Assembly: GCF_004010195.1 (NCBI RefSeq)
Contig: NC_057719.1
Location: 34,907,537 to 34,971,536 of the forward strand
Direction: 5' to 3'
Length of the DNA stretch: 64,000 nt
Source of the DNA: Chiloscyllium plagiosum
Lineage: Eukaryota
A program made the position numbers and the translations under genes. Of the stretch, positions 15,197-63,178 are shown piece after piece (position 1 is the first letter of the stretch; the number at the start of each line of letters is the position of its first letter). The notes beneath the pieces are model-generated. The model did no database searches, was not told the origin of the DNA, and saw nothing but the letters and a program-made list of their open reading frames with translations.

Positions 15197-15411
15197 AGGA
15201 GAAAGTGAGGTCTGCAGATCCTGGAGATCAGAGCTGAAAATGTGTTGCTGGAAAAGCGCAGCAGATCAGGCAGCATCCAGGGAACAGGAGAATCGACGTT
15301 TCGGGCATAAGCCCTTCTTCAGGAACCATTCCTGAAGAAGGGCTTATGCCCAAAACGTCGATTCTCCTGTTCCCTGGATGCTGCCTGACCTGCTGCGCTT
15401 TTCCAGCAACA
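15197..15411. mobile_element. Penelope-derived fold-back element with 16-bp TSD
   Basis: Arms 15241-15325 and 15329-15413 are near-perfect reverse complements; CACTCTCCCACCATTG at 15181-15196 and 15412-15427. Confidence 0.8.
15295..15322 (-). ncRNA. Minimal type I hammerhead ribozyme motif
   Basis: CUGAAGA-A-GGGC(UUAU)GCCC-GAAAC-GUC. Confidence 0.6.
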
Positions 15412-15446
15412 CACTCTCCCACCATTGTCTGGCCTATTCTGCTCTG

Positions 15447-15580
15447 GGAGAAAGTGAGGACTGCAGATGCTGGAGATCAGAGCTGAAAATGTGTTGCTGG
15501 AAAAGCGCAACAGGTCAGGCAGCATCCAAGGAGCAGGAGAATCGACGTTTCGGGTATGAGCCCTTCTTCAGGAATGAGGC
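15447..15580 (-). mobile_element. Second copy of the same Penelope-derived terminal repeat, hammerhead core at 15544-15571
   Basis: Near-identical to 15197-15325. Confidence 0.75.
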
Positions 15581-15969
15581 TCTGGCCTGCCAACTGCTGG
15601 CCATCCCACACTTCTCGAGCCTCCTATAGTATGGTCGTCTCCTCTGCACTGGGCCCAGTGAGTATCCCACTCCAGGCTCTCAGGTACTACAGTAGGTTTG
15701 GCTATGTTTAAAAAAAAACCCCATGTCACGACAGGACTGTGTATGGAGAGGTGAGTTTTTAAAAAAAAAGTTACTGAACTCTGATGTTGAGTCCTAGAAA
15801 CTGCAGGGTCCCCAAAAAATGAAATCCGTTCTTTGAACTTGTGCTGCGGCTTGCTGAAATACTGCAGCAGGCCTGCAATAGAAATGTTGAGAATGGAGGA
15901 GTGAACTCTGAGTTGGAGAGGAAATGGTCCAGGGGTGCAGGTTTGCTCACTGAGCTGTAGGTTTGATAT

Positions 15970-16009
15970 CCAGACGTTTCATTACCTGGCTAGGTAACAT
16001 CATCAGTGG
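15970..16009 (-). ncRNA. Minimal type I hammerhead ribozyme motif
   Basis: CCA-CUGAUGA-U-GUUACCU(AGCC)AGGUAAU-GAAAC-GUC-UGG; stems I and II can pair, palindromic ACGU stem III. Confidence 0.7.
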
Positions 16010-16565
16010 CGACCTCCAAGTGAACTGAAGCTGATGTCTCCTGCTTTCTATTTATATCTTTCTCCTAGATGGGGTTCCTGGGGTTTGTGGTGATGTCATT
16101 TCCTGTTCGTTTTCTGAGGGGTTGATGGATGGCATCGAGATCTATGTGTTTGTTTATGGCGTTGTGGTTGGAGTGCCAGGCCTCTAGGAATTCTCTGGCA
16201 TGTCTTTGCTTAGCCTGTCCCAGGATAGATGTGTTGACCCAGTCGAAATGGTGGTTTTTTTCATCCATGTGTAGGGCTATGACTCTCTCCCTCGTAGCCC
16301 TATACACAGATGAAAAAAAAACACCATTTCGACTGGGACAACACATCAATGCTGGGACAGGCTAAGCAAAGACATGCCAGAGAATTCCTAGAGGCCTGGC
16401 ACTCCAACCACAACGTCATAAACAAACACATAGATCTAGATGCCATCTTTCAACCCCTCAGAAAACGAACAGGAAATGACAGCACTACAAACCCCAGGAA
16501 CCCCATCCAGGAGAAAGATATAAATAGAAAGCAGGAGACAACAGCTTCACTTCACTTGGAGGTCG

Positions 16566-16605
16566 CCACTGATGATGTTACCTAGCCAGGTAATGAAATG
16601 TCTGG
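16566..16605 (+). ncRNA. Hammerhead motif, mirror copy with a C>T change in stem III
   Basis: CCA-CTGATGA-T-GTTACCTAGCCAGGTAAT-GAAAT-GTC-TGG. Confidence 0.55.
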
Positions 16606-18004
16606 ATATCAAACCTACAGCTCAGTGAGCAAACCTACACCCTACACCCTAAACTTCAACCAGAGTTACAAACCTTGTAGGAAATGGTCCGTTTGGAATG
16701 CTGACAACTGAGGTCTGGAAAAATGTCTGGTCTGATCATAGCATCCAGTTTGAGGTTATAGGAATGACAGCTTATGAACTTTTGAATGTGAAGGCTGGTG
16801 GGAATGTAAGTGAGGCCGGGGAAAGTTATTGTTATGGAAGGGCAGATGGGGGCAATGTTAGAAGCTTAGGAGATGGTTGGACACAGCTAAGGGTGCTATC
16901 AACAACATGGAAGTATCTCTACCTCTGGGCCAGAAGATCTGGGTTCAAGTCCCACCTGCTCCATACATGTGTCTGAACAGGTTGAAAAAAAATTGTAAGC
17001 TGGTTTCTTGGAGTACTGCTGTGGCACAGTGACAATGTCTTGACATTGAGCCAGAAGTTTCAGATTCAAATACCACCTGCCCCAGATATATGTAAAATTG
17101 TGTATGAACAGATTTTCTTTTTAAAAAGAAAGAGGTTGAGGATTTGTAATAAAGCCCTTGTAAATCTTTGAAAGTCTTTTCTCCCTAGTTCAAGATATGG
17201 ATATTGGTCTGTTAAACAACCTTCCTGTTCTTTTATTGTACACCCCTAATATTGAAGTATGGAATACCGTGTACCTATCCTGCAACCTTTTAATAACTAA
17301 CATATGGATACCCAGATCTGAGCTGCACACCTTTAAATTATAGCCTTTGTTTTGTAGTGTTTCTCCATGTTCTTTCTACTTAAATGCAGTGCTTCATAAC
17401 TTATGTGATTAGGGAATAAATAAAGCTGGGCATCATAAAAAAAAAGCAGGCTCTTGCAAAGAAATACTATGGTATTTTTATGTCCATTTCAGAGGACATG
17501 CAGGGAGGCATTTTAACAACTCAGCTGGTACAGAAGTGTCAGCATAGATTGAACCTTCAACTTGCTGAAGTACACACTAAATCTATGAGCTTCTCCTCAC
17601 TCTAGGATGAACTGCTATCAATCATTGCGGTTCTCTTTCAGGTGACTCAGCAGGCCAATCATGGATCCATAGGTCTTTTGATTACCCTTTTGAAGGAATT
17701 TTTGAATGCTCCCATCAAGCCAATGTTTTTACTTGAGTGGACTGTGGTCATTCGCCTTTCAGCTGCAGTTGTCAGGAAAATCAATGAAGAAATAAAATAG
17801 AAAGTACCACTAAAAGCAATTTTGTAATTTGATAACTTTCTTTGTGGAGGTGCATTATAATAATCAAGTTACGCACCTTATGTTAATCTTCAGGTGGTTT
17901 AGTTGATCCAGATTTGAGCTAAATAACTTACATTGTGTAGTTGAGCTTGGATAATTATTTATGTGATGTATTGAAAATATCCTGCCTATGTTCCTGTAAT
18001 ACAG

Positions 18005-18122: not shown

Positions 18123-19421
18123 GTATGTTATGTTTTTCAAATGTTTTTATTCAATTTATCCTGTTTTATGCCTAACTTTGCCAAATGTGTTATCTTTAGT
18201 CAACAGCACAGCACCCACACAAAGTATCAATAAATAATGAAAATCAGGTTTAATGTTTCTTCTCATTGTTACTTTTAGGTTTGAAGATAATGCTGTAACC
18301 CCGAGCACTGATTTTTATTTGAGCGGTATTGTAGAATAGATTGTAAATTTGATATTACATCGACCTTCCTTTCTTCCCTTTGTCTCAATTTGTTGTCCGG
18401 TCCTTCCTCTTTTAAATGTGTTGAACCATGCTCATATACTTTAACCAACCCTTGGCAGAAATGTAGTACTTCTCTAAATGTTCTTCATCTGTGAATCTGT
18501 TAACCAATGCCAACAGGCTTCATAACTATGATCTAGATGTCCATATATACGTACTTTCTATTAGTGACCCCCTGGGATACTGTTCAGCAGTAGGACCTCT
18601 TGTAAATTACTTTTCTCCCCTGACCAACATTTCTGATACCAGTTGTGATGATTATGCTACTTTTACTGAAAATTTACTAATTCTGTTGTAAACCAGGGAT
18701 CAACTCTCCAATGATTCCAATCTGTATTTGTCAGAATTGTATCAGATTGCTTATTTTACATAAAAATGTTTTAAAAGAATTAGTGCTGCAAAAAATGTTT
18801 ACTAAGAATTTAATAAAATGTAACCAGGAGTTGTGAACTGATTTCTGTAAATTTGAGTTTAGAGAAACAGTCTTTTAACTTTGTTTTTGTTTTATTGATT
18901 TTTGTCCCATATTTTTAACCCAAAATTGTATTAGACAGTAAGGTTAAAGCCTGCAGCTGAGTAACTCATCTGACTTGCTCTTTTCATTTGTTGGGACAGG
19001 CTTAACCCATAATTCCCATTGTATGCAACGAAGATGGGAATTTAATTAATTTGATCAAATGCATGCTGAAAAGCTACCTTTTAATTTAAAAAAATGTTCT
19101 TACTTATGATTGAGTTAAATCATAACTATTTTTAAGTGGGAGTCCAAAACGATCTAAGAATATGGTACAAGTAATTTAAGAATGAGGTGAGGAGAGATTT
19201 ATTCACCCAGAGAATGGTGAGCATGTAGAATTCACTACCACAACGTAGTCTGGGCCAATATTTTGTGATTTGAAGGAGGAGTTGGAAAACACTGGGACTA
19301 ATGGGATTGAAGAATACAGGAGAAAAACAGGAATAGGCTTGTTCATCATGAATGGCAGAGCATGCTTGAAGAACAAAATGGTTTACTCCTGCTCCTATTT
19401 TCAATGTTTCTATTTGAAAAG

Positions 19422-19627
19422 TTAAAAATCACACAACACCAGGTTATAGTCCAACAGGTTTAATTGGAAGCACTAGCTTTCAGAACGCCACTCCTTCATC
19501 AGGTGATTGTGAAGGAGCAGCGCTCCGAAAGCTAGTGCTTCCAATTAAACCTGTTGGACTATAACCTGGTGTTGTGTGATTTTTAACTTTGTACACCCCA
19601 GTCCAACCCCGGCATCTCAAAATCATG
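19422..19627. mobile_element. Short fold-back element with hammerhead motif and 13-bp TSD
   Basis: Inverted arms ~19418-19499 and ~19510-19590; TCTATTTGAAAAG at 19409-19421 and 19628-19640. Confidence 0.8.
19471..19505 (-). ncRNA. Minimal type I hammerhead ribozyme motif (third family)
   Basis: CAC-CUGAUGA-A-GGAG(UGGCG)UUCU-GAAAGCUA-GUG; palindromic AGCU stem III. Confidence 0.6.
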
Positions 19628-19734
19628 TCTATTTGAAAAGACCATCATAATGTACACCATAACAAGCATCTGTTGCACCTGTAATAGTTAGGAGAGTTGT
19701 ATATGACCTTTTTCATTTCCAAAACTGTTTTCAG

Positions 19735-20389: not shown

Positions 20390-21388
20390 TTCCATCGAAG
20401 ACCACAGTTTTCCCTCCCCCTTGATCAACAGTGCCCTTAACTGCATCCTCCATTTCCTGCATCTCTGCCCTCAAACAAACCCACCCCCCCAACCGCAACA
20501 AGGATAGACTCCCCGCGGTCCCACTAATTTCCAAGTCCAACACATCATCCTCCACCTGTTGCACTGTGATCCCACCACAAAAATTATATTTTCGCAGGGA
20601 CCGTTCCCTCTGCGACTCCCTCGTTAGGTTCACACGCCTCTTCCACACCTGGCACATTCCTCTGCAGCCAGAGGAGCTGCAAAACCTGCCCATGCACCTC
20701 CCCTCTCACCTCTGTCCAAGGCCCCAAGGAATCATTCCAAATCTGGCAGAGATTCACTTGCATTTCCTCTAATATGTTTTATTGCATCTTTGCTCCCGAT
20801 ATGGTCTTCTGTACGTTGGAGAGGTCGAGCGTAAACACAGGAACCAATTTAGGGAACATTTATGGTCCATAATCTCCAATCAATCCCACCTTCTGGTTGC
20901 CAGCCATTTCAACACCCTCTTCAACTCACCTGACAACATGTCCATCCCAGACCTCCTCCACCATCAAAATAAGACCATACACAAACTGGAGGAAGAACAC
21001 CTCATCTTCTGCCTCGGGAGTTTACAACCATACAGGCTTAACATAGAATTCACCAGCTTCCAAATTTCTTCATCCTCCCACCTCATCCCAGGCCCAGCCA
21101 TCCTTCTCCATCCCACCCCTTAACCTGACCCAACCTGTCCATCTTCCTTCCCACCTATTCGCTCCACCCTTACCACTGACCAATCCATCTACCTCATTCC
21201 TGCAACCACCCATCGCCAAATCTTTCCCCCACCCCCACCCACCTCCCTCTATTTATTTCTCAGCTCCCTTCCCCAATCCTGATGAAAGGTTTCAACCTGT
21301 AACATTGACTCCCCTTCTCCTTTGATGCTGCTTGACCTGCTGGCTTTTTCCAGCTCCACTCTGACTCTCCAGTTTTCACTTTTTCCAC
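20390..21388 (+). mobile_element. Penelope-like element 3' part (degraded GIY-YIG endonuclease and terminal repeat)
   Basis: YC..CSRYGLLYVGE.ERK..FREHL..VASHFN..KLEEEHLIFCLGSLQP..LNIEF; mutated hammerhead at 21279-21306. Confidence 0.8.
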
Positions 21389-21774: not shown

Positions 21775-22085
21775 GTGAGTTACTAAACTTTGTATTGCAT
21801 AACAATGTTCCAATCTTTCTAATTAAGGTTACCTTTTAGAAATCACAATATGGAATTTATAGTCCTAAATGTCCCAAATTGTATATGAATAAATGTTTGT
21901 GAAATAAATATTGGTCAGAGCATTGAGAAAGCTCTGTATCTCGGGCACCTGTGCCCTCACCCCCCCCCTCCAGCCATGGTTGACGCGAGAAAACGGCTTG
22001 CCGGTGCTGATTCCGAGCCAGAAGCCGAGAATTCCTGAACCCAAACCATTGAAAGGGAGGCCGTGACGTACGTAGTATTAACTCA

Positions 22086-22490
22086 GAGGCTCAGTGGTTA
22101 GCACCGCTGCCTTACAGTGCCAGGGACCTGGGTTCGATTCCAGCCTCAGGCATCTGTGTGGGTGGAGTTTGCGCATTCTCCCCGTGTCTGCGTGGGTTTC
22201 CTCCGGGTGCTCCGGTGTCCTCCCACAGTCCCAAAATGTGCAGGTTAGGGTGGGTTGGCCATGCTAAATTGTTGTGTAGTGTCCGGGGATGTGCAGGTTA
22301 GGGTTATGTAATTTTGGGTCGACTGGCCATGCTAGGTTGTCCCATAATGTCCAGGGATGTGCAGGTTAGGTGCATTAGTCAGGGGTAAATGTCGAGTAAT
22401 GGGGATTGGGTCTGGGTGGGATACCCTTTGGAGGGTCGGTGTGGACTTGTTGGGCTGAAGGGCCTGTTTCCACACTGTAGGGATTCTAAG
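22086..22490 (+). mobile_element. HE1-type tRNA-derived V-SINE with internal tandem duplications
   Basis: A/B boxes, V-domain TTCTCCCCGTGTCTGCGTGGGTTTCCTCCGGGTGCTCC, CR1-like tail. Confidence 0.85.
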
Positions 22491-22545: not shown

Positions 22546-22905
22546 GTTTGTGTAAAGATTTGTAGCTCAGGTGCCAGTTGTCGTGGCTGTGGGTATGGTC
22601 GCTGAGCTGGGAAGTTGATTTGCAGACGTTTCATCACAGGACAGCCAGAGAATCTCTAGAAGCTTGGCACTCAGCCACAGACTCCATCAACAAGCACATT
22701 GACCTAGACCCAATATACGGGCCGCTTCAACAAACAACTGGAACCGGCAACAACAGGCAGCAGAAACGGAACCAAATAAATTCCAGAAGACACAGTATAG
22801 CAGCACTTCACGGGAGGCTCCAAAGCACTGAAGATGTCACCTAGACAGCAGACAAAACATCTGCAAATTACCTTCCCAGCTCAGCGAACATACTCACAAT
22901 CACAA
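22546..22905 (+). mobile_element. Penelope-like fragment with inverted 5' segment and degenerate TSD
   Basis: TARESLEAWHSATDSINKHIDLDPIY; decayed hammerhead 22825-22864; GACACCATCTTCAAC / GACATCATCTCCTAC flanks. Confidence 0.75.
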
Positions 22906-26240: not shown

Positions 26241-27700
26241 AGGCCAAGGTTATGAGGGCAAGGAGGAAAGTGGAGTTAATGCCAGAATCAATTTAGCCAT
26301 GATCTTGAATGGTGGAGGAGTTGAATGCCCCACTTTGTTTTAGAAAATGATCTAATGAATGTTCAGATTTTGCAAACTGCTGATCTTGCTTTGAAAAGCT
26401 TCTCATTGCTATTAGCCATTGTTGCTCAATGCATAATGTATTGTGGCTATAACATTGTTGCCATTGTCATATCTGTGGCTAGGTAGTGTTCTACTGGACA
26501 ATATTCTTATAAGTACATGGAAAATGCCTGAATCAGAACCAAGAGTGTCTTAAACAGTTCACAATCTGTGCTACATTTCCGCCAAACATTGTTTGACAGA
26601 ATCATTTGCGAGTTGTTTGTGATCTGAATAGATTCTACAGTGTACTTGAAAGATAATAAATGATCTGGTTATCATTGCTGACTTAAAACTCCAGGTCTTT
26701 TGAATATTTTGTTTATGGATTGTAAATCATCTGAATTGGTCCTTGTTACCATTCCATCTTCCTGTCCAGCTGATTTTTATGCTGTATGAAACAAAGCTTT
26801 TCTTTAGAGCACCAGTTGCTTCTACTGTCCAAAACTTGCTATTGGTATTAGATGTGTCCATAAGAGGTTTATTTCTTGTAAAATTTCAACACTGATAGTT
26901 GTTAGTATAATATAGTGAATTTATCCCCTTTAATATTAGACTGATTCACTTTACACAGCAAGGTGTTTCCAATTAAATTGATCAGCATACAGTGACAAGA
27001 GACCGCTACTGCACATGAAAAGGAAGAAATTTCCTTCCTAATGAACTTTAGTCAACAGAGGATAAAACCTCCGAAGCTAGTTCCTGTTACTTGTAGTCTG
27101 TGAAGAGAATTTGCCTGTTAATGGATTAGTAGGGCATATTTTGCTATAACGGTGCAAAGAATTCTCTTTGGTGTAGGTACAACCTATCTCTATAATTTGT
27201 AGAAATTCTGGAATTCCCCTCCCTAACTGCATTACGGGGGTATCTACACCAAATAGACTGTCGTAGGTTCAAGGCAGCTCACCATCACCTTACCAAGGGC
27301 GATTACTGAGAGCTAATAAATGCTGTCCAGCCAGCAAAGCCCACGAGTTATGATCCAAATCAACAGAAAGAATAAATGCTTCATAAACTGCAAATGAGAG
27401 AGTGCGGGAAACTCAGCTTCATAAAACAGCATGAGAGGGAGCAGGTACAGCAACTGCAGAAACACTGCAAAATTGTGTTCAGGGATAGTACTTCCTGGAA
27501 CAGTGTATCCGGCAGTGGACAGCTCACAGCTAGCTGAGCCTGGGGTTCTGTCTATCTGTCAATTTGAGATTATAAAAGAAAGCTGATGTTGCAGGGAAAC
27601 AGATGAGTGATTGTATGTCAGTATTTTGTTTAGTTGTCTTCCAAAACAATGATAACTTATTTGTAATTGTAAGATTTTACTTAGTGTTGGTAATTTTTTT

Positions 27701-28014
27701 TAGATTAGATTACTTATAGTGTGGAAACAGGCCCTTTGGCCCAACAAGTCCACACCGACCCGCCACCCACCCAGACCCATTCCCCTACATTTATCCCTTC
27801 ACCTAACACCATGGGCAATTTAGCATGACCAATTCACCTAACCCGCACATTTTTATTTTGGACTGTGGGAGGAAACAAGAGCACCTGGAGGAAACCCACA
27901 CAAACACGGGGAGAAGGTGCAAACTCCACACAGTCAGTCGCCGAGGCAGGAATTGAACCTGGGTCTCTGGCGCTGTGAGGCAACAGTGCTAACCACTGTG
28001 CCACCGTGCCGCCC
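27701..28014 (-). mobile_element. HE1-type V-SINE, full length
   Basis: GGGCGGCACGGTGGCACAGTGGTTAGCAC head, V domain, (AATCT)n tail. Confidence 0.9.
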
Positions 28015-28079: not shown

Positions 28080-29090
28080 GGGGGTGAAATACTGCAGCAG
28101 CAGAATGTGGAGGCTTCTAAATGCAGCTATCATCCAGGATAAACATCTGCCATGTCTGGCCGCAAGAACTATGGCTTAGAGGTTATGAGCTGGAGGCTGA
28201 GCTACAGACACTGAAAGGTCATGGAGGGAGAAAATTACTTATATGTTTTGTTCCAGAAGGGAGTCACACCCCTTAGTCTTTTGATTTGGTCAATAATCAG
28301 GGACAGGAAGTCTCTGACTTCAAATGGGACAGTTTAGAGGAATGAAATGGTGGGAGTGCAGGAGCCTTAGCCCTTGCAATTGTCCAACAGACTTAAGGTT
28401 CTTGCTCTCTGTATGGATGAAAGCAGGGGTGGCAGAGTAAATTAGCAAACTGTCCATGGCACCATTGTACAGGAAGTCATTCAAATAGGAGCAGTGATTA
28501 GAAACGTAAATGGTCGTATGGAACTACATATTCAGAGGAATACATGTTATACATTAGAATATAAATGTTTCTGAGGAGTCTGAATCCATTGGTTTTAGTG
28601 AGAGCTTAATTTAAACACATTCTTAAATCTCAGCATTAATTGCTGGCCCCCTATACTAGTACAATGAATTCTCACCCAGTCAGCCTTTAATCAATATATC
28701 TATCATGTTCCCTCATTCCTTTAGGTTTTAAGCATCCTGTTGGACCTGATAACAATTGACATAAGTTTCTGCCTGATGAAGGGCTTTTGCCTGAAACGTC
28801 GATTTTCCTGCTTCTCGGATGCTGCCTGACCTGCTGTGTTTTTCCAGCACCACTCTAATCTTGACTCTGATCTCCAGCATCTGCAGTCCTCACTTTCGCC
28901 TATAGGTTTCTGCAGCTGAGTGTGAATGTCCAGGTGGCTATGCTGCCTGCCCGAAGCCAAGATATGGGATATCTTTTCAGGCTGGAGAGGAACTTACACT
29001 GGAAGGTAGAGGAATCAGTGTTTGTAGTCTGGATAGAGATTAAAAGACATGGGTAGAACTGGGAAAAAAAAGATTTTTCTGAGAGAGTGT
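28080..29090 (+). mobile_element. CR1 ORF1 (esterase-type) fragments
   Basis: LWLR..ELEAELQTL, LQLSNR.KVL, SRWLCCLP.A..LERNL.W motifs, interrupted. Confidence 0.5.
28773..28901 (+). mobile_element. Penelope-derived terminal repeat starting at a hammerhead core (28773-28800)
   Basis: CTGATGA-A-GGGC(TTTT)GCCT-GAAAC-GTC; flanks ATAAGTTTCTGC / ATAGGTTTCTGC. Confidence 0.75.
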
Positions 29091-29989: not shown

Positions 29990-30688
29990 AAGATGAAGGA
30001 GAATGCAACTTGGTTGTGAAAATAAAGAGACCTTGGAGTGCAGGTTCATAGTTCCTTGACAGTTGAGTTGCAGAGAGATAGGATAATGAAGAAGGCGTTT
30101 GGTATGCTTTTCTTTATTGGTCAGGTCATGTTGCGGCTGTACAGGACATTGGTTAGGCCACTTTTGGAATATTGTGTGCAATTCTGGTCGTCTTCCTATT
30201 GGAAGGATGTTGTGAAACTTGAAAAGGTTCAGAAAAAATTTACAAGGATGTTGCCAGGGTTGGAGGATTTGAGCTATAGGGAGCAGTTGAATAGCCGAGG
30301 GCTGTTTTCTCTGGAGCATCAGAGGCTGAGAGGTGACATTTTAGAGGTTTATAAAGTCATAAGGAGCACGGCTAGGATAAATAGACAAAGTCTTTTCCCT
30401 GGGGTGGGTGAGTCCAGAACTAGAGGGCATAAGTTTAGAGTGAGCGGGGAAAGATATAAAAGAGACTTAAGAAGTAACTTTTTCACGCAGAGGGTGATAC
30501 GTGTATGGAAGTGGTGGAGTCTAGTACAATTGCAACATTTAAAAGGCATCTGGATGGGTATATGAATAGGAAGGGTTTGGAGGGCTGGCAGGTGGGACTA
30601 GATTGGATTGGGATATCTGGTCAGCATGGACAAGTTGGAACAAAGGGTCTGTTTCTGTGGTGTACATCTCTATGACTGTATGACTTTA
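29990..30688 (+). mobile_element. CR1/HER1 LINE 3' end
   Basis: LYRTLVRPLLEYCVQFWS..RLRGD..TRGHKF; (CTATGACT)-like tail. Confidence 0.9.
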
Positions 30689-33699: not shown

Positions 33700-34760
33700 A
33701 TAATCAGAGTCAGAGAACTGTACAGCATGGAAACAGAACTTCAGTCCAACTCATTCAAGCTGACCAGATTTCCTAAATTAATCTAGATCAATTTGCCAGT
33801 ATTTGGCCCGTATCCCTCTAAAGACTTCTGATTCATGTAATCATCTAGATGCCTTTTAAATATTGTAATTGTACAGCCTCCACCATTTCCTCTCGCATCT
33901 CATTCCCTAAATGCATCACCCTCTGCATGAAAACATTGCCACTTGGGTCCCTTTTAAATCTTTCCCCTCTCTCCTTAAACCTATGCCCTCTAGTTTTGGA
34001 CTTCCCCACCCTGAGGAAAAGAACTTCCCTATTTACCCTATCCATGCCCCTCATGATTTTATAAACCTCTATAAAGTCATCCCTCAGCCTTTGATGCTTC
34101 AGGGAAAATAGCCCCAGCCTGTTCAGCCTCTCCTTATAGCTCAAATCCTCCAACCCTGGCAACAACCTTGTAAATTATTTCTGAACCCTTTCAAGTTTCA
34201 AAACATCCTTCCTATAGCAGGGAGACCAGAATTGCACACAGTAGTCCGAAAGTGGCCCACCCAATGTCCTGCAACATGACCTCCCAACTCCTATACTTAT
34301 TGCACTGACCAATAAAGGCAAACATACCAAATGTCCTCTTCACTATCCTATCTACCTTGGACTCTACTTTCCAGAACAATGAACCTCTCCAGGGTCTCTT
34401 TGTTCAGCAGCGGTCCCTAGGATGTTACCATGAAGTGCATAAGCCCTGCCCTGAATTGCCTTTCCAAAATGCAGCACCTCACATTTATATAAATTAAACT
34501 CCATTTCCCAGTCCTCAACCCATTGGCCCATCTGACCAAGATGTGGTTGCGCTCAGAGGTAGCCTTCATCACTGTCCACTGCACCTCCAATTTTGGTGTC
34601 ATGTGCAAACTTCCTAACCATTCCTGCTACGTTCATATCTAACCCATTTATATAAATGATGAAAAGCGGTGGACCTAGCACCAATCCTTGCAGCACCCTG
34701 CTGGTTACTGGCCTCCAATCTGGAAACCAACCCTCCACCACCACCTTCTTTCTTCCATCT
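33700..34760 (-). mobile_element. CR1/HER1 LINE 3' part
   Basis: WRPVTS.VLQG.VLGP, KFAHDTKIGG, MLPGLEDLSYKERLNRLGLFSL. Confidence 0.9.
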
Positions 34761-40620: not shown

Positions 40621-40947
40621 GGGCAGCACGGTGGCACAGTGGTTAGCACTGTTGCCTCATAGCAGCAGGGTCCCAGGTTCAATTCCAGCCTTGGACAACT
40701 GTCTGTGTGGAGTTTGCACATTCTCCCCTTGTCTATGTGGGTTTCCTCCGGGTGCTCCGGTTTCCTCCCACAGTCCAAAAGTGTGCAGGTTAGGTGAATT
40801 GGCCATGCTAAATTGCCCATAGTGTTAGATGAAGGGGTAAATGTAGGGGAATGGGTCTGGGTGGGTTGCACTTCGGCGGTCGGTGTGGACTTGTTGGGCC
40901 GAAGGGCCTGTTTCCACACTGTAAGTAATCTAAGTAGTCTAATCTAA
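40621..40947 (+). mobile_element. HE1-type V-SINE, full length
   Basis: tRNA-like head, V domain, GGGCCGAAGGGCCTGTTTCC and (AATCT)n tail. Confidence 0.9.
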
Positions 40948-42324: not shown

Positions 42325-42638
42325 AGATTAAATTAGATTACTTATAGTGTGGAAACAGGCCCTTTAGCCCAACAAGTCCACACCGATGCGCAACCCACCC
42401 AGACCCATTCCCCTACATTTACCCCTGCCCCTAACACTATGGGCAATTTAATATGGCCAATTCACCTAACCTGCACATTTTTGGACTGTGGGAGAAAACC
42501 GGAGCACCCGGAGGAAACACATGCAGACACGGGGAGAATGTGCAAACTCCACACAGTCAGTCGCCTGAGGTGGGAATTGAACCTGGGTCCCTGGCGCTGT
42601 GAGACAGCAGTGCTAGCCACTTTGCCACTGTGCCGCCC
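42325..42638 (-). mobile_element. HE1-type V-SINE
   Basis: Same family as 27701-28014. Confidence 0.88.
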
Positions 42639-47173: not shown

Positions 47174-47337
47174 TATAAAAACCAAAAGAACTGCGGATGC
47201 TGGAAATCAGATCAAAAACAAAATTGCTGGAAAAGCTCAGCAGATCTGGCAGCATCTATGGAGAGGAATAAGAATTAATGTTTCAGGTCCAGTGATCCTT
47301 CCTCAGAACTGAGCATTTCCAGCAATTTCTGTTTTTG
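47174..47337 (-). mobile_element. Penelope-derived short element with inverted end, decayed hammerhead and 11-bp TSD
   Basis: AGUU-CUGAGGA-AGGAUC(ACUG)GACCU-GAAACAUU-AAUU; TCACTAGATCT / TCACTTGATCT flanks. Confidence 0.65.
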
Positions 47338-49204
47338 TCACTTGATCTAGTTGAATATAGAAAGTTTCATATTGCTAGATTTAGTTTGTAATAAGAAAGG
47401 AATGTCGTAAATGTATCTTTCCCTTTTTAGAATCCTTAATTTAAAGCTTTATGTAAATATCAAAAATGTGTTTGAAAACAGTTGTTTTGGGAGTAAAGGT
47501 GTTAAAACTTGAATCTATTATATTATATATCCTCAGAATGCCAAATTCAGCTTTAGAATATTTAAAGTTGGACAATCATGTCACATGATTCAGACGGACG
47601 GGATTTTATTCTGTTTTACGTTACAACTGGAAAAATAGCCTGATTCGGTAGAACTACATTATTTGCTGATTCCTCACAAATTAAGGGCATGTTTTGTACT
47701 ATGATGGGGCAAATTTATATAAAATATCCTATAAAGGATTTTCCTTTCCACATAATTATTCTCATGTACAATTTGCTATTTTTGCTTTCCAGTTAAGAAG
47801 TATTGTTGTAGTAATGAATCAGTTCTTACTGGTTTTGCCATTTATCCTCGCCTTTGTAAATGTTTATTCTAAATCAGGTTTAAAATTTAGAATCTATTAG
47901 AAAGATCCTTTTGTTACAGCCGAGTTTGTTTTCTCCACTGTGATTCGTATAATAAAAACAGTTAAATTTCTGGGCAATATTGAAGAACCAAAACCTTTCA
48001 GTTCAGTAAAGTCATCCAATCTTGAAATAATGACATTTTTTTCCATATAAAAACAGCAGAATTTAGACAGGTACTGAACGTAGAACCTCCTTTTCTTAGT
48101 CTGTTTGTCATAATGGCATCATGTCTAAAGAGTTAACACGAGTTACCTTTTCGGAGAATTAAGTCTGCATCTACTTCACATGCTCACATGGAATTGATAA
48201 AAATCGCCTACAAGAACTTCCCAAGAATGCAAGTGTGGTCCACCAACTGATATTTGGTGCTAATATCTGAAGTGGTGTTGCTGTGTTGGATCTAATGTAC
48301 CAGTTCTAACAATACACAGTATTGGTTGGAGGCTATGGTTATAATCTCAAATTTTAAGGAACTTGCAGGAAAATAAACTTCTATTTGTAAGAGTAGTGTT
48401 GGTAACAGTTGCAGCCCAGTGTTACAAAGAGAACCGTGAAGAAAATGAATATGTGGGATCTATCATTAAAATTCTGAAACATATGTTCAGTTTTTCTGTT
48501 AAAACAACTCTCCGAAGCTATATTGTTAGGGAATAATTTGTTTTTTGAAAAAAGAAAATTACTGTTCCCGAATTTAATTTATTATTTTCTCCCTAATCTT
48601 CTGAAGTTCTAAGCTATCTAAATATTTCATTCTTTCAACAATATCAGCCTAGGCTGTAAAGGGTGTCTTAGGGAAGTTAGATCATGCCCTCATCCAAATC
48701 CACACACTGTTTTTCAGTGACTAAATGGTGACCAAAAGTGAAAACTGAGGCTGATTAATTTCACTCCCTAGGCAAGTGCTGAGGCCAGCTGGAGCACATT
48801 TGGTGTACCTATTAGAATTTTTAAAAAAACCTGATAGAGATATTCTGAGTTATAAATAAGCTCATTTTAATTTTGATCTTGTAAACTGATTTGCCTACTA
48901 CATTTATTCAAAGTGAGCATTACCATATTATCAAAATGGAATTTTGAAGGTCCTTATCGAGGTAAATGGGAACATGAGAGGCCATCAGGCTGCTTATAAA
49001 TTTAATTATTATGTACCACTTCAGTTATTACTTCTGTTGGTGTTCTGCAGGAAGCCTGTGTCTGAAAATTATTTTGGGTATGGTGGGTTAGAATACATTG
49101 AGAGAAATAGTTTAGATTCTAATTATTTTTCCTCTTCCCAAAGCTTCTTCTGTATGGCATGTTGTAATACCATTCTAATGGTGGACAGAATTTCTGCATT
49201 TACT

Positions 49205-49735
49205 CAGAGTCATACGGCACAGAAATAGACCAATTTGTCCATGCTGACCAAGTTTACCAAATTAAACTAGTCCTACTTGCCTGCATTTGACCCATCTCAC
49301 TCTAAACCTTTTCTATTCATGTACTTATCCAAATGCCTTTTAAATGTTGTAACTATACCTGAATCTACCATTGCTCCAGACAGCTCATTGCACAAACGAA
49401 CCGCGCTCTCTGAAAAAGTTGCGGCTCAGGTCCCTTTTAGATCCTCTCACCTTAAAAATATGCCCCATACTTTTGAACTTATCCATCCGAGGGAAAAGAT
49501 GTTTGTTATCCACCTTCCCAAAGTCCGTCAGCATTTTATAAACCTCTAAGATCACCCCTCAACTTCTATGCTTGTGAAAAAGATCCAAGCCTATCCTTTT
49601 AACTCACTCTCCAGGTACAGCAATACTGTGGTAAATCTTTTCTGAACCCTTTCCAATTTAATAATATCCTTCCTGTAACAGAGTAACCAGAACTGTACAC
49701 AGTACTCCAAAAATGGCCTCAACAACGTCCTCAAT
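49205..49735 (-). mobile_element. CR1 LINE 3' end
   Basis: RTLLRPFLEYCVQFW..IIKLERVQKRFT. Confidence 0.8.
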
Positions 49736-56774: not shown

Positions 56775-59170
56775 AGGCTGGACCAGCATTTATACCCCAT
56801 CTGTTGTTGTCCTTGAGAAGGTGGTGGTGAGGTGCCTTCTTGAACTACTGGAATTCATTTGTTGTAGGTAGATCCACAATGCTCTTAGGGAGAGAGTTAC
56901 AAAACTGAACCGGCGACACTGAAGGAATAGCAATAAATTTCCAAGTCAGTATGGCGGGTCGCTTGGAGAGAAATGAGCAGGTGGTGGTGTTCCCTTATAT
57001 CTGCAAAGTTTTATCATTCTAGATGGTAGTGGTTGTGCGTTTGGAAGGTACTGTCTAAGGAGCCTTGTGAATTTCCAGTGCATACTGTAGATGGTACACA
57101 CTGCTGCTGCTGAGTGTTGGTGGAGGGAGTAAGTGGACTGCTTTGTTCTGGATGGTATCCAGCTTCTCAAGTGTTGTTAGAGCTGCAGTCATCTGACCCG
57201 ATGGGGAGTATTCATCATATTTCCAATTTTTGTCTTGTAGATGGTTGACAGGCTTTGAGAAGTCAAGAGGTGTGTTATTCACCATAGGATTCCTAGCCTC
57301 TGACCAGGTCTCATAGCCATAGCATTTATATGGCATGTCCAATTCAGTTTCTGGACTGTGGGATAACCAGAAGGCTGATTGTGGGAGAATCAGTGATGGC
57401 AATGCTATTGAATATCAAGAAGAGATGGCTAGATTCTCTTCTGTTGTAGATAGTCATTGCCTGGCATTTGTGTGTTGTGAATGTTACTTGCCACTTGTTA
57501 GCCCAAAGCTGATTGTCCAAGTTGTGCTGATTTGGACATAGATCACTTCAGGATCTGAAGAGTTGTGAATGGTTCTGAAAATTGTGCATTCATCAATGAA
57601 CAGCTCTGCTGATGAAAGGATGTTCATTGATGATGTAACGGAAGATGGTTGGGCCAAGGACACGATCCTGAGGGACTCCTGCACATATCCTAGAGCTGTG
57701 ATGAATGACTTCCAACAAACACATAGAGGAAGGAATATGGACATAATGATTGAACAGCTAGTGAGAGTAGGGGAGGAATACTCACTCATTTAAAGCAAAG
57801 AGCTGATTGAGAAAAGTAAATCAGGTTATTAGCGAATTAGCAATAACCTGAACACTGACACTCAGTTTGAGTTCTCCCAGGGCCACTCATATCCTGACCT
57901 CATCACAGTCTTGGTTCAAACATGGACAAAAGAGCTGAATTCTGGAAGTGAGGTGAAAGTGGCAGCCCTTGACATCAAGAATGCATTTGACCAATGTTGC
58001 ATCAGAGAGCTCTAGCAAAACTGGAATTAATTGGGATGAGAGGACAAGCTCTCTGCTGACTGGATTCATACCTGTCAATAGGACAATGGGTTATGATGAT
58101 AGAAGTCAGTCATCTGAGCTCCAGGACATCTCAGCGAGTTTTGAGAGGATTTGTAGCTCAGGTTGAGGTTCTGGATGTTTGACACCACTTTGACTAGGAC
58201 AACACATCCATCCTAGAACAAGCCAAACAAAGACACGCTTGAGGGTTCCTAGAAGCATGGCATTCCAACCAGAACTCTATCAACAAACACATTGAGTTAG
58301 ACCACGTCAACCACCCCCTGAGAAAAAGAACAGGAAGTGACTTCACCACAGGAAATGACATCACTGACCCAAGGAAACCCAAACATATAAATAGAAAGCA
58401 GGAATTATCAGCAGTGCTTCATTTGAGGCCCACTGAAAATGTTACCTAGTAGGTGACGAAACATCTGGAAATGAACCTTCCAGCTCAGCGAGCAAACCTA
58501 CATCCAGATCCAGAACATCTCAGCAGGGGTTTGTCAGGATAGTGACCAAGGCCCAACCATTTTCATCTGTTTCATGAATGATCTTCCTGCCATCACAAGG
58601 TCAGAAGTGGGATATTCGCTGATGATTAGTGCTGAACATTGTCCATCCACTCTCCTAGATACTAAACAAGTTGATGTGCAAATGCAACAATAACTGAACA
58701 ATATCCTGGCTTGGCTGAAAAGTAGCAAGTAACATTCAAGCCACTCTAATGCCATCTCCAGTAAGAGACAATCTAATCATCATCCCATAACAGTCATGTT
58801 GCCGTAACTGAATCCCCCACTATCAACATCCTGGGAGTTATCATTGACACGTAGTAGCCGCAGTATATATTATCAGCAAGGTATATTGCAAAATTCCTCA
58901 AAGATCCTTAGATGGCATCTTCCAAGCCCACAACCACTTCCATTTAGAAGCACAAGCACATCTGTGTATGCCCCTCAGGTCTCTCACCATCCTAACTGGA
59001 AATATATTGATGTTGCTTCACTAATGTTGGGTCAAAATCCTGGAATTCTCTCCCTAACTGCACTGACAGTCTACGTACAGCACATGGACTGCAGCAGTTC
59101 AAGAAAGCAGCTGACCACGACATTGGCATGGGCAATAGTGGCCAGCCAGTGAGGTTTGTCCCATGAGTGA
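56775..59170. mobile_element. Two opposed fragments of the CR1/L2-group LINE (- ~56775-57700, + ~57880-59170)
   Basis: Same family as 7130-8462; VAALDIK.AFD motif at ~57960. Confidence 0.65.
58136..58508 (+). mobile_element. Penelope-like fragment with inverted 5' tip and 16-bp TSD
   Basis: HHFD.DNTSILEQAKQRHA..FLEAWHS; mutated hammerhead ~58430-58468; TCCAGGACATCTCAGC / TCCAGAACATCTCAGC flanks. Confidence 0.8.
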
Positions 59171-59881
59171 ATTTTTTTTTAAAATCATTTGGATTCAGAA
59201 TAGGTACACAAATCATGTAGTAAGAAAACAATGTTGTGGATTAATGCAATATTATTGCTTGCAAATTGGTTTTTAATTGTTAGAAATGGAAAACAATTTT
59301 TGTCTGGTTCACTGAAATTTTCAACCACTGACTCGCACCCTGGTTTATTTGGTCATCTAAGTTAAATAAAGAATTTTGTTTGGATTTCATCTTGGAAATC
59401 TGTGAAACAAATCAATTTGAAGCAAGTTTCTAAATAGCAAAATAATGCATCTTTAGGCTTCAAAACCAGACTTTTGTTTTTTTTTGCAATCCTATATTTT
59501 TAGTAACTTCTTCAAACAAAATTGTGTAATTATACAGACTATAACTGTAATCCAATATATTTCTGTCGCAAAAAAGAATCGTATTGGACTTGAAACATGA
59601 ACTGTGTTTCTCATTGTTAAATGTGCTAAGTTTCTCTAGCATTTTGTTTTCATTTCAAATTTTTACCATCTCCAGTATTTTACTTTCATCTCAAACTAAG
59701 CATTTAGTTTAGATAATATTTGGAGAAGTTAGAACAAATTTGAATAATCAGCTTAAATAAAAATGTAGCATTTATTTATGCTTTTATTAATATATTAGGC
59801 AATGTAGTTTTCTAAATTGTTGTTAGTGCACATCAATGGATAGTGGTGTGTTATCTGTTTTTCTGCTTTTTTTTAAACTAG

Positions 59882-59934
59882 GGTCACTGTAATGATGTGC
59901 TTATCTTTCAAACACAACCCTATTCACTTTTCAG
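59882..59934 (+). CDS. klhdc1: KLHDC1 exon (probably 12)
   Basis: tag|..|gtaaat; GHCNDVLIFQTQPYSLF. Confidence 0.94.
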
Positions 59935-61899
59935 GTAAATGTTAAAATTTCCTTTGACTTTACATTTTATTTGTAAATTTATCCGTAGTTAATGTTAACC
60001 ATTGTCTAATTTGAAAACTAGTAAATTATGGTCTTTATTGTTATTTCAAGGCATGTCAACATTGAATGTGAGAGAAGATAGCTTAGAATTTTAATTTGAA
60101 CAAACACATTGAAATGTTGACTAGTTTACTGACCTATTGTATCTAATAAAATTAAGGAAGGTAATAAGAAATTCTTGAGCGCAACAACTGTGGGTTCAAA
60201 ATTAGGACAGAATCTGGTGCTGAAGTCAGTGGATGATTTGAATAACTTCAGGCCCTAGATCTGGATAGTAGTAGTGTTGTGACTTTCTCTCTGTGGAACA
60301 ACTGATCACAGAAATTGAAATTTACAACCTTATAAACTTTTGTCCTGAGCAGTCTGAAAGCTGTTATATGTTCCTCCTCTCTTCATGACTCCTCAAAATT
60401 GGTGGGATAGATGTCGCAGACACCCTAAAATGCTTCAGCACACCTTCAGTCTGAGTTTGTTTATTGGCGATGAGATTTGTTTTTAAGATCAGCATTAGGC
60501 CCAGTCAGTGAATTTCTCACTCATCTAATTAGTGGCTTTATGTAATAGAACATGTGGATGTGATCCAGAACCTCAGCACCTGTTGGGAATCTCACACTCC
60601 ATTAATTGCAGAACTTTGTTATGCTGCTGCTAATTGATAGGGAAGATGTGAACTGGGAGGCTTAAAGATATATTGTACTTAGCAGTTTTTGTTCATCTAT
60701 TTCTGAGCTGATGATTACAATAACAGCTTGAAATTAATATTTGTTACTTCTATGGTCACTGGCAGTGGGTGCAGGGGTTTGACTCTGGATTTGCTTTCAA
60801 TATAGCTATAACAATCACTACCTGTTATGAATCAAATTCTGAAATCATTGGTCCTTTGGTAGCCATGGAGTTTCATGTTTCTGCTTATCTACTGCACTGT
60901 AGAAATTCTGGTGATGTGTGCAATCGCAGATCTGTTTGTCTATTCATTGCCTTTCTATTTACACCAAAAGGGTTATTATTTCAATGTCTAGCAGCCCATT
61001 TTAGGAGACTGCATGCAGTCACAGATATTTTCTAATCAACCTGTTGAGAAATATTATTACATGCCTCGTTCTGTACTAAGTATGTAATAAGACCAATAAA
61101 CTTTAGATCAGGAACTTGACATACAAAAATGAGTAGAAATCTGGCATTATATGTTGACTCAATTTTTTTTGACTTGAGTATGCACTTTTCACCTAAAGAT
61201 CAAGCATTACTGACTGGAGAATGCACCACTCTGTTGGAGTAAACTCAGTGTTTTGTATTGTTCTAAAATTGGTAGCTGGATTTCATTTGATCCATGCACT
61301 CTAGCTTCAGTCCAACAATGCATATTCCCTGTTTGTACTCATGAACTTAATTGTTTTGGATTCGGTTCATTTGCTTAATGTCAGCATGTGTCAGACAAGG
61401 ATTACCAGTTTGCATTTGTCAATATGTGGTCAGTTTACAGGATGAGATACTTTCTGTGGAGCTTCTAGCAATGACTGCAGTTGAAAGAGCAGGGACTCTG
61501 TTTTAAAGCAAGGTTTTCACAAGCACTTTAAGGCATAGCAAGCACAAATATCATTCTGTTTTCCCTAATGCCTATAAAGTCAGAGAGGTCTGTGAGAAGT
61601 GGCCAATGAAGTGGATTTCACAATTGCTGGAATGAAGTCCAGTGAAGTGATCAGAAGTGGTAACATTGAGGATTACACTGTGATCTTATATTTGCACAAT
61701 TATCAATGCTATTGTATTTCCCCCAGCCAAACTTACTTTGTACACCTTTCTGTGGTTTGTAATTAGACTGCATTGTAGACTTTGTATCATTTTGTTTGAT
61801 CAGCATCAAAGTTCTAGCACAAACCTTGATACGCAAACGCCAATAATTATTTCTGTGCAAAGAATGACACACACGCATGATATATATCTGAAGCATGTG

Positions 61900-63178
61900 G
61901 TCATGAGTATGGTGCTGGAAAATTACAGTAGGTCAGGCAGCATCCAAGGAACAGGGGAATTGACGTTTCAGGCATAAGCCCTTCATCAGGAATTAGGCTT
62001 GTGGGCCAGGAGGGTGCTGAGAGATAAGTGGGAGGGGGCGGTGGGGCTGGGGGAAGGTAGCTGGGAATGTGATAGGTAGATGAAGTTGGGGATGAAAGTG
62101 AAAAGTCAGAAACGAGGGTGGAGTGGTTAGGTGGGAAGGAAGATGGACAGGTCAAGAGGGCGATGCCGAGTCGGAGGCTTGGGACTGGGATAAGGTGGGG
62201 GGGGGGAAATAAGGAAACTGATAAAATCCACATCGATCCCATGTAGTTACAGGGTTCCAAGGCAGAAGATGAGGCATTCTTCCTCCAGGTGCTGGGTGAT
62301 TAGGGTTTGGCGATGGAGGAGGCCCAGGACCTGCATATCCTTGGTGGAGTGGACAGGGCAGTTGAAGTGTTCAGCCATGGGGTGGTGAGGTTGGTTGGTG
62401 TGAGTGTCCCAGAGATGTTCTCTGAAACGATCTGCAAGTAGACGTCCTGTTTCTCCGATGTAGAGGAGATCACATCGGGTACAACAGGTACAGGAGATGG
62501 CGTGTGTGGAAGTACAGGTAAATTTCATTCTGGATGTGGAAGGATTCTTTGGGGCCTTGGATGGAGGTGAGGGGGGAGGTGTGGGTAGAGGTTTTGCTCT
62601 TCTTGTGGTGGCAGGGAAAGGTGCTGGGAATTTGGTGTGGGCTGCTGGAGGGCATGGATCTGAAATGCTGATGGGGTGGGTAGGGAAATATATCGAATGT
62701 AGGTGGGGAATACCTGGCCTAAGGGAGACAGGATGGTGTCAAGGTATGCAGCGATGAGGGGCAGGAGCAGGTTCAGACAATGGTACCAACCAATTCCACT
62801 GCCCCATGGTTGAACACTTCAACTCCCCCTTCCACTCCACCAAGGGCATGGAGGTCCTGGGCCTCCTCCATTGCCAAACCCTAATCACCCAGCGCCTGGA
62901 GGAAGAATCTTCCTCTTGGGACCCTGCCATCACACAGGAACAACGTTGATTTCACCAGTTACCTCATTTCCCCTACCCCCCCCACCTTATCCCAGTCCTA
63001 GTCACCCCCTCCCATTTATCTCTCCGCACTGCCCCTCATACCCCTCTTCGGCCCACAAGCCTCATTCCTGATAAAGGGCTTTTGCCCCAAAACTTCAATT
63101 CGCCTGCTCCTTGGATGCTACCTGACCTGCATCACACTCTCGACTCTGCTCTCCAGCTGCAGTTCTCACTTTCTCCTA
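61900..63178. mobile_element. Penelope-like element in inverted arrangement (- GIY-YIG 61900-62660, + fragment 62780-63178)
   Basis: FTCTSTHAISC.CCTRCDLLYIGETGRLLADRFREHL; hammerhead core 61962-61989 (-), mutated copy 63068-63096 (+). Confidence 0.82.

Follow-up and report, generated by a model that had tools for sequence, protein, structure and literature searches.

The hammerhead motifs of the 64-kb window (the whole stretch of DNA analysed here) most probably lie in the terminal repeats of ten truncated Penelope-like element (PLE) insertions of three lineages, likely copied by reverse transcriptase (RT), where they are likely decaying, inactive passengers. All 14 motif positions given by an earlier sequence-only reading are present, exactly or a few nucleotides off; for minus-strand motifs its coordinate is the left end. 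A strict descriptor (intact core, stem II of at least 3 bp and palindromic 15.1-16.1) has six matches in the window (15295, 15544, 15970, 19471, 28773 and 61962), all in that list. In 900 Markov-shuffled windows (orders 1, 3 and 5, 300 per order), the same descriptor gave means of 0.02-0.07 and a maximum of 2. This excess, and the shared position of the motifs in homologous repeat ends, make chance matches a scarcely credible explanation, even though two of the ten matches obtained without the palindrome rule (35015 and 37470) fall outside mapped PLE insertions and an Rfam scan of the window reported no hammerhead family. That scan returned three weak miRNA-hairpin matches only, which are due to the fold-backs of the insertions. 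The density amounts to at least 14 motifs per 64 kb, and a partial family B motif at 22625-22637 (minus) had been overlooked.

By sequence comparison, the 14 motifs fall into ten insertions and three unrelated lineages: A with its subfamily D, B, and C. The count of at least four families that had been proposed is thus overstated, since the copy at 47277 (D) is homologous to A. Downstream of the cleavage site it scored 46-89 against six or seven family A copies (0/300 shuffles) and 29 against 63068 (reached by 1-2 of 300). Scores across A, B and C were 12-18, nearly all in the shuffle range (lowest count 2/300), and this cross-lineage comparison with shuffles found no consistent similarity among the three. 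The copies and their parts are as follows.

14445 to 14542, minus: decayed D-type copy, absent from the earlier list.
15197 to 15411, head-to-head: family A stub insertion of two arms with a 16-bp target duplication (15181-15196 and 15412-15427); the minus arm (15197-15325) is tailed and begins 3 nt upstream of C3, the plus arm (15327-15411) is tailless and begins 5 nt upstream of it.
15295 to 15322, minus: minimal hammerhead whose core is intact, with a G-C closing pair, a stem II of 4 bp and the palindrome ACGU; the fold-back hairpin is predicted to sequester it.
15332 to 15359, plus: minimal hammerhead relic, G12>A.
15447 to 15581, minus: solo, tailed family A stub that starts 8-10 nt upstream of C3, with an uncertain target duplication of 7-8 bp; hammerhead 15544-15571 (minus) with intact core and one stem II mismatch.
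15931 to 16678, head-to-head: family B (Poseidon-type) insertion with 329-nt arms, 95% complementary, a tail on the plus arm only and a 12-bp target duplication (15919-15930 and 16679-16690).
15973 to 16006, minus: family B minimal hammerhead, core intact, stem II 7 bp, stem I 3 bp; A9-U-G10.1 forms an AUG.
15993 to 16283, minus: C-terminal GIY-YIG coding remnant, its reading continuing into the hammerhead.
16313 to 16582, plus: C-terminal GIY-YIG coding remnant.
16569 to 16602, plus: family B hammerhead, palindrome ACGT>ATGT.
19422 to 19627, head-to-head: family C stub flanked by a target duplication of 13 bp (19409-19421 and 19628-19640), the plus arm bearing a ~40-nt tail; intact hammerhead 19474-19502 (minus) with AGCU palindrome, and motif 19510-19534 (plus) with the first core bases absent.
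20394 to 21362, plus: old, 5'-truncated Neptune-type copy with an ORF remnant (20394-21030; C-x3-C-x2-C linker and GIY-YIG, pyrimidine-rich UTR downstream) and a defective hammerhead (21279-21306).
22548 to 22905, head-to-head: second family B subfamily; plus arm with GIY-YIG remnant 22635-22841 and G12>A hammerhead 22828-22861, minus arm (22548-22637) with a tail and beginning inside stem II.
28773 to 28901, plus: solo family A stub of 129 nt with tail, starting at C3 or -1, and a 12-bp target duplication with one mismatch (28761-28772 and 28902-28913); hammerhead 28773-28800 (plus), core intact.
47180 to 47338, stub on the minus strand: subfamily D stub, homologous to A, with hammerhead 47277-47306 (ACAT and U17) and a ~30-nt inverted piece at 47309-47338.
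58136 to 58508, both strands: family B copy with GIY-YIG remnant 58183-58446 (plus), G8>A hammerhead 58433-58465, an inverted tail piece at the left end and a 16-bp target duplication with one mismatch.
61905 to 63178, head-to-head: family A (Neptune-type) insertion with GIY-YIG remnants 62250-62709 (minus) and 62776-62997 (plus); hammerhead 61962-61989 (minus) has an intact core and no stem I, and 63068-63096 (plus) is multiply mutated.

The insertions carry the hallmarks of PLEs, namely 5' truncation, head-to-head inverted arms, an optional tail and target duplications. Inverted arms occur in seven of the ten, tails measure ~36-44 nt in families A, B and C, and target duplications of 12-16 bp flank five insertions; at the other five, none of at least 12 bp was found. 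There are two alternative 3' ends, ~40 nt apart, and the commonest 3'-side loose ends among those listed are 15447 and 15486-15491. GIY-YIG remnants stand upstream of seven of the 14 motifs (Neptune-type in A, Poseidon-type in B), so that these motifs are the ends of protein-coding elements; D is connected by homology to A. Pfam recognised none of five GIY-YIG remnants in the window, and they were identified via longer homologues. Together, remnants and insertion hallmarks bear out the Penelope-related origin that had been suggested from the sequence. The PLE origin of family C comes from its architecture only, because the 64-kb window contains no family C ORF and the family C pattern had no match in metagenome contigs. 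The description of the repeats as non-autonomous holds in the non-coding sense only, as five of the ten insertions, with those seven motifs, retain GIY-YIG coding remnants; end-only stubs carry the other seven motifs and begin at most 10 nt from the core.

A CX2-5CxxC linker upstream of GIY-YIG is present in 69 of 76 family A relatives versus 0 of 85 family B relatives, and also in the 20600-20830 remnant and in P0002. On this linker we assign family A to the Neptune/Nematis clade, within which Neptune and Nematis are not told apart. Family B, without the linker and with a putative ORF start at stem II, is assigned to the Penelope/Poseidon clade. Two carpet-shark proteins with RT-like and GIY-YIG motifs, P0005 and P0010, run directly into the family B motif. 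In all four family B motifs A9-U-G10.1 reads AUG, 28 nt before the cleavage site, and the extra base of this family is likely the U in a start codon. Read from A9, 22828 matches the 832-aa P0018 at its N-terminus (13/23 identical, 0/2000 shuffles), and so does the 22637 arm (0/2000); both arms of that insertion likely encode the ORF N-terminus. The other three family B copies scored within the shuffles (327, 1672 and 1011 of 2000), and comparison of the ends of families A, C and D with 76 Neptune-type proteins yielded no N-terminal match (best scores 28-32, without a shuffle control). As a general account of the extra nucleotide, a start-codon U was rejected: 0 of 11 testable U cases had an open frame of at least 60 codons from A9. 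Among 123 generic matches (120 metagenome loci), 53 have a stem II of at least 4 bp; their extra base is A in 34, U in 13, C in 3 and G in 3, and a same-strand PLE protein match accompanies only 3 of the 53.

The motifs are, as had been claimed, minimal type I hammerheads, and many have decayed. The conserved core (C3-A9, G12-A14, U16.1) is intact in eight of 14 and recognisably decayed in six: G12>A in 15332, 22825 and 63068, G8>A in 58430 and 63068, A13>U in 21279, and C3/G5/A6 absent from 19510. An ACGU or AGCU palindrome is kept in eight; it has become ATGT, ACAT or ACTT in 16566, 21279, 22825, 47277, 58430 and 63068, five of these six changes being single transitions at CpG. Eight motifs are therefore defective in core and/or palindrome, and both are intact in just six. 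G12>A accounts for 10-12% of DNA depth. The extra nucleotide noted after A9 is present in every motif, with one nucleotide between A9 and 10.1 (A in 10, U in 4), and pair 10.1-11.1 is G-C in seven, G-U in six and A-U in one. In family A, stem II has 4 bp and stem I a predicted 2 bp.

Covariation of the stems had also been put forward earlier. Stems differ across unrelated lineages yet still pair, which is consistent with conserved structure, whereas the within-family signal is not significant: two small alignments (6 and 4 copies) contain two double changes each, and their covariation was reached by 79/500 and 67/500 shuffles. The read data give marginal base frequencies only. The G·U closing pairs cited in support (UUCU, AGGUAAU) are one-sided C>U changes beside G12, so CpG decay fits several of them. 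Nearest-neighbour folding predicted the motif cores to be paired in their fold-back context and favoured an active dimer for no motif. Because this method cannot represent a two-site dimer and gives an unreliable energy for family C (3-nt loop, G·U pairs), we do not count folding as evidence on activity.

The claim of a large population fits the read depth, and family A stubs are very abundant, with a preferred, not fixed, 5' edge. Motif 5' ends of stubs lie between -10 and +4 of C3 in all seven listed, and family A depth at -9/-10 is at most ~2% (DNA) or 7% (RNA) of that at N7; this ratio derives from a single probe copy (85% likeness), so that diverged long copies are under-counted. In the window, long copies hold three of seven listed family A motifs. 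Genome-wide, family B copies mostly extend into the ORF, and their depth over 240 nt of ORF is 0.40-0.93 of that in the hammerhead bin.

According to studies of other PLEs, the target is nicked by the endonuclease and reverse transcription begins internally at the 'tail', and cleavage of the motif needs a second copy and probably also an element protein. The insertions in the window were likely copied by the PLEs' own reverse transcriptase. Copying would begin at the tail, ~60-100 nt downstream of the cleavage site, and continue through that site, which implies a template RNA that is uncleaved or re-ligated. In family B it would end at scattered points of the ORF. In family A it would mostly end at the hammerhead's front edge and so leave ~130-nt stubs, likely because the RNA template starts there, with the A of an initiator-like TCATTC at -4; the preferred 5' edge is probably the start of that RNA. 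The motif of a head-to-head insertion would be hidden inside a long predicted hairpin, and a functional ribozyme would thus be found not in these copies but in tandem transcripts of intact master elements. This architecture matches that described in parts of PMC4209133, PMC11167929, PMC3846280 and 10.1101/2021.04.23.441226.

The preferred edge could also reflect RT stalling or template switching at a folded or protein-bound hammerhead rather than an RNA 5' end, a reading we consider somewhat unlikely. Two arms do begin within the motif, that of 19510 in its core and that of 22637 in stem II, and the depth of family A drops across stem II and core. However, family B has a longer stem II (7 bp) and most of its copies run far beyond the motif, and the preferred family A edge lies just upstream of the structure, not at its 3' foot. 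We hold it still less likely that the family A stubs (perhaps C and D as well) are a self-propagating SINE-like family with its own internal promoter that uses PLE protein in trans. Their ends are discrete, with the 5' end at about -4 and the 3' end at either of two fixed points, the solo copy at 28773 has a target duplication, and peak summed depth of family A is 17-20x that of family B. Published passages on PLEs add that in a rotifer pLTR sequences were enough for integration in trans (PMC3846280) and that the Drosophila Penelope promoter lies inside the pLTR (PMC2377424). Yet stubs in the window differ in their 5' ends (-10, -5, -3, -1), they are 84-87% identical to the ORF-bearing family A copy at 61905, and 96% of RNA reads continue into unlike sequence and occur on both strands, as read-through host transcripts would. 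A specific version, in which family A would be a 129-nt SINE-like monomeric retrozyme with an initiator at -4, mobilised in trans by a Neptune protein, out-amplifying its master manyfold in carpet sharks and with rare head-to-tail dimers as cleavage-competent sources, seems improbable to the same degree.

Spread as retrozymes, in which the hammerhead would cleave tandem units that are then ligated into circular RNA, is very unlikely. The cleavage site is uninterrupted in every listed copy that holds it, as it would be in copies from a ligated circle; head-to-tail joints of the 129-nt unit (15575>15447) occur in 20 and 14 contigs; and a preprint (10.64898/2026.07.22.740005) reports retrozymes in its one chondrichthyan. 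Against this, no motif in the window is covered by a tandem array, adjacent motif pairs inside one insertion are all inverted, and the joints are rare (depth 184 and 102 versus millions) and fall not at the cleavage site but at the -4/tail boundary. Predicted cleavage sites showed no pile-up of read ends either, among 3355 RNA reads from one single-cell poly(A) run of low power.

Decaying passengers of truncated PLEs, the reading we prefer, agree well with known systems. Hammerheads of this kind (min-HHRs) were described in metazoan PLE pLTRs, including those of fish Xena, Poseidon and Neptune (Cervera & de la Peña 2014, PMC4209133). What is given there and what we find share a type I core without real helix III, the extra nucleotide between 9 and 10.1, G10.1-C11.1, palindromic 15.2-16.2 and a short helix I, as well as several families per genome, mostly single truncated-PLE copies and opposite-strand pairs. 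The suggestion that the repeats may be poorly described is thus not supported: that paper already lists the extra nucleotide, the palindrome and the solo and opposite-strand copies. With the design known since 2014, our main claim adds only shark examples. From introduction to methods, that paper names no sharks, and we found no description of shark PLE hammerheads in literature outside subscription journals and Repbase/Dfam. Family A stems (II 4 bp, I 2 bp predicted) are shorter than those given for Schistosoma (7-8 and 4-5 bp; PMC4209133).

Animal non-LTR retrozymes (10.64898/2026.07.22.740005; PMC7229834, in part) are likewise non-coding, with a type I hammerhead and kinship to PLE pLTRs, but are defined as tandem repeats with a hammerhead per unit (10.64898/2026.07.22.740005), whereas copies in the window are solo or inverted. 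If family A stubs were self-propagating, sharks would have a PLE-driven equivalent of SINEs.

As in the portions of the work on EN+ PLEs that treat their structure (Arkhipova et al. 2013, PMC3846280; Craig et al. 2021, 10.1101/2021.04.23.441226), we see 5' truncation, an adjacent inverted copy, a 30-40 bp tail at one end, target duplication and a pLTR with the first ORF codons. Those portions also place the Cys linker in Neptune and Nematis and not in Penelope/Poseidon, the same split as between A and B; they do not state an excess of end-only stubs with a preferred hammerhead 5' edge, such as family A has. These stubs may mark both the start of the PLE template RNA and the start of reverse transcription, and would allow the internal-initiation model, shown in vitro for the Anolis Poseidon element PAc (Frangieh et al. 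2024, PMC11167929), to be tested on the scale of a genome. [quoted passage not shown] In both systems two 3' ends define the tail and no RNA reads end at the cleavage site; unlike PAc, the window copies are known from sequence alone and include no intact element. It is tempting to speculate that, with the family B core overlapping a likely start codon, cleavage would cut the coding sequence and could switch the RNA between mRNA and template.

All 14 hammerhead motifs claimed by the sequence-only reading are present in the window. We scanned the window with a strict descriptor of the minimal type I hammerhead (CUGANGA, an optional extra base, stem II of at least 3 bp, GAAA, a palindromic tetramer ending in U, and H17) and obtained six matches, every one on the earlier list; in Markov-shuffled windows (300 per order) the means were 0.023 (order 1), 0.070 (order 3) and 0.053 (order 5), with a maximum of 2. 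Dropping the palindrome rule gave ten matches, eight of them listed and two (35015 and 37470) outside the mapped insertions. The extra base is found in 14/14 motifs. All core letters are kept in 8/14 and the palindrome in 8/14, with both in 6/14; pair 10.1-11.1 is G-C in seven motifs, G-U in six and A-U in one. At 15295 alone the core and the palindrome are both intact, the closing pair is G-C and stem II is full. Many of the defects are CG-dinucleotide transitions (G12>A, C11.1>U, ACGT>ATGT or ACAT), an established outcome of methylation decay, and we read them as such. No matching family for the window motifs was present in Rfam.

At least four families had been proposed. When 12 segments downstream of the cleavage site were compared against 300 shuffles per pair, with mirror arms (the opposite inverted halves of the same insertions) standing in for 15332, 19471 and 15970, we found three groups, mutually without consistent similarity, and one diverged subfamily.

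Motifs grouped by sequence downstream of the cleavage site

15295, 15332, 15544, 21279, 28773, 61962, 63068: family A
47277: subfamily D of family A, diverged
15970, 16566, 22825, 58430: family B
19471, 19510: family C

All 14 motifs lie in ten insertions that together take up 4,566 bp (7.1% of the window); two further copies had been overlooked. Inverted arms occur in 7/10 insertions, target duplications of 12-16 bp surround the whole unit in 5/10, and four (15197, 15931, 19422 and 61905) carry an extra 3' tail of ~36-44 nt on one arm only. Because not one of the 14 listed motifs starts at the cleavage site, the templates appear to have been uncleaved or re-ligated. In the predicted folds of the fold-back loci, stem II is lost in 5/5 motif contexts and the core is paired in 4/5. 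Absent from the earlier list is a decayed D-type hammerhead end at 14445-14680 (-), whose pyrimidine-rich upstream stretch resembles a Neptune UTR; a protein match sought for this interval was not found.

The earlier reading took the stem differences to look like covariation. Differences in stem sequence between lineages are consistent with a conserved fold, a comparison of unrelated sequences rather than a statistical test. Within families the signal did not reach significance: there are two double changes in the alignment of family A (six of seven copies, 63068 being omitted for an indel) and two in that of family B (four copies), and 95-96% of cells are paired, but 79/500 and 67/500 shuffles, respectively, reach these values.

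Translated sequence upstream of the motifs has matches, at up to 84% identity, among the predicted proteins of Chiloscyllium punctatum, Hemiscyllium ocellatum and Stegostoma tigrinum, which makes a carpet shark the likely host. Three of these carpet-shark proteins (P0002, P0005 and P0010) contain RT-like and GIY-YIG-like matches, all under the Pfam curated cut-offs. RVT_1 is annotated in the full-length relatives of these proteins (830-950 aa), some of which also have a GIY-YIG annotation. Searching the window with these proteins placed GIY-YIG remnants upstream of 7/14 motifs. The family B ORF runs into the motif, with its stop codon in the stem II region, and a pyrimidine-rich UTR separates ORF and motif in family A. 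A CX2-5CxxC linker characterises Neptune and Nematis in the part of Craig et al. (10.1101/2021.04.23.441226) available to us. We find this linker in the 20600-20830 remnant, P0002 and 69/76 P0002 relatives, and it is missing from 85/85 testable P0010 relatives, so on the linker diagnostic, rather than a phylogeny, family A is Neptune-type and family B Poseidon-type. For family C the window contains no ORF, and we infer its link to Penelope-like elements (PLEs) from insertion architecture.

A weak Neptune-type protein match (E 7e-4) at 16675-16814 (-) adjoins the family B insertion at 15931, which suggests an older PLE remnant as the target of this insertion. The family B GIY-YIG remnant also matches predicted carpet-shark host isoforms (P0003, P0004, P0006 and P0011), which comprise CUE domain protein 2, a CDP-alcohol phosphatidyltransferase-like protein, WBP2-like and MAP3K7; in P0003 and P0004 it forms the C-terminal end. 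These isoforms are either exonisations or gene-model artefacts.

In 4/4 family B motifs, A9-U-G10.1 reads AUG. Read in the frame of this AUG, the 22828 copy matches the N-terminal end of P0018, a full-length relative of 832 aa (13/23 identical, 0/2000 shuffles), and in the 22637 arm the match goes on through the tail (0/2000 shuffles); the remaining three family B copies gave no N-terminal match to P0018 above shuffles. A start-codon U was rejected as a general account of the extra base: that base is A in 34/53 structured metagenome matches as well as in families A, C and D. The generic minimal-hammerhead pattern occurs in an estimated ~69,000 stored metagenome stretches; a stem II of at least 4 bp, which the pattern does not demand, was found in 53/123 sampled matches (loci L001-L120).

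Read and contig depth was followed at 85% likeness with a single probe, 15430-16300, comprising one A stub (an end-only insertion) and one B arm, in two RNA raw-read runs (3355 reads from one, 0 from the other) and two contig sets. Old copies are under-counted, and the variants, joints and loose ends given here are those listed, with a further 82, 101 and 1238, respectively, beyond the listing. Summed contig depth, which is not copy number, peaked in family A at 1.5e7 and 1.1e7 and in family B at 7.5e5 and 6.9e5, with flanks at single digits to hundreds. Because family B depth persists over eight upstream bins (0.40-0.93 of the hammerhead bin in set X2), B copies usually include ORF sequence. 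Family A depth at -9/-10, counted back from core C3, is at most 1.9% and 2.3% (DNA) and 6.9% (RNA) of that at N7, although the long A copies in the window have this upstream sequence in common. Position 15575 (-4) recurs among the listed loose ends (157 RNA reads) and joints; one of these joints connects the 129-nt A unit head to tail, in 20 and 14 contigs (depth 184 and 102), and is rare. Equally rare are contigs with a tandemly duplicated family A tail, whose joints within 15447-15481 go back 33 nt.

G12>A accounted for 10.2% and 11.6% of the depth in DNA and for 18.4% of the RNA reads, with no matched neutral control visible. Across the A cleavage region RNA retained 0.46 of its depth vs 0.32 and 0.28 for DNA, a smaller drop in RNA. 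The RNA reads cover both strands, and 96% continue into unlike sequence. No pile-up of molecule starts or ends was seen at any place in the 3355 RNA reads, which come from a fragmented single-cell poly(A) library with little power for cleavage ends.

The most likely scenario starts with an intact element whose RNA begins in the upstream terminal repeat (pLTR). In family A, TCATTC has its A at -4 and resembles an initiator. The element protein would then nick the target and begin reverse transcription internally, at either of the two tail ends. Internal initiation has been demonstrated in vitro for PAc, the Poseidon element of Anolis (PMC11167929), and in Drosophila the promoter of Penelope sits inside the pLTR, according to the accessible part of PMC2377424. 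Premature stops would leave ORF-bearing fragments, as in family B. A start at the tail nearest the RNA 5' end would yield a run-off copy of ~130 nt, a reading of the A stubs to which we give roughly even odds. The hammerhead would act only in direct tandems or with protein; in the portions of the sources available to us, activity of PLE hammerheads is low (PMC4209133) and cleavage occurred in 1/9 Xenopus dimers (Li et al., 10.64898/2026.07.22.740005).

Other repeats also populate the window. A decayed LTR-retrotransposon pol remnant includes an integrase core match (Pfam rve, E 1.4e-7, slightly below cut-off). Members of a second dispersed repeat family are 83-90% alike, some inverted; by eye the family looks like a tRNA-derived SINE, ARAGORN found no tRNA in it, and it may resemble shark HE1 SINEs. 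Repeated LINE-like RT C-terminal fragments, presumably CR1-like, include a 369-nt inverted pair. A region of higher GC contains internal duplications at 71-75% identity, possibly nested LTR-like remnants.

Other repeats in the window

3403-4835: LTR-retrotransposon pol remnant
4067-4393: integrase core match
22084-22490, 27700-28014, 40272-40934, 42145-42640: second dispersed repeat family
30021-30677, 33708-34404, 49219-49731, 7408-7698: LINE-like RT fragments
30142-30510 and 33903-34271: inverted pair
10653-14212: region of higher GC
11271-11561/11726-12034, 10653-10948/12697-13004, 12496-12628/14081-14212: duplicated pairs in 10653-14212

The motifs are a real feature of the window, and their design is known: every structural feature listed in the sequence-only reading is already described in the part of Cervera & de la Peña (PMC4209133) available to us, and the suggestion that these derivatives may be poorly described is not supported. 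In the literature searched we found no description of shark PLE hammerheads; motifs from sharks or other fishes may be among those in the supplements of PMC4209133. The accessible part of Li et al. (10.64898/2026.07.22.740005) reports pLTR-derived tandem retrozymes, one chondrichthyan among them. Inverted arms, a one-sided tail and target duplication, as seen here, make up the same insertion pattern as that published for EN+ PLEs, in the portion of that literature available to us.
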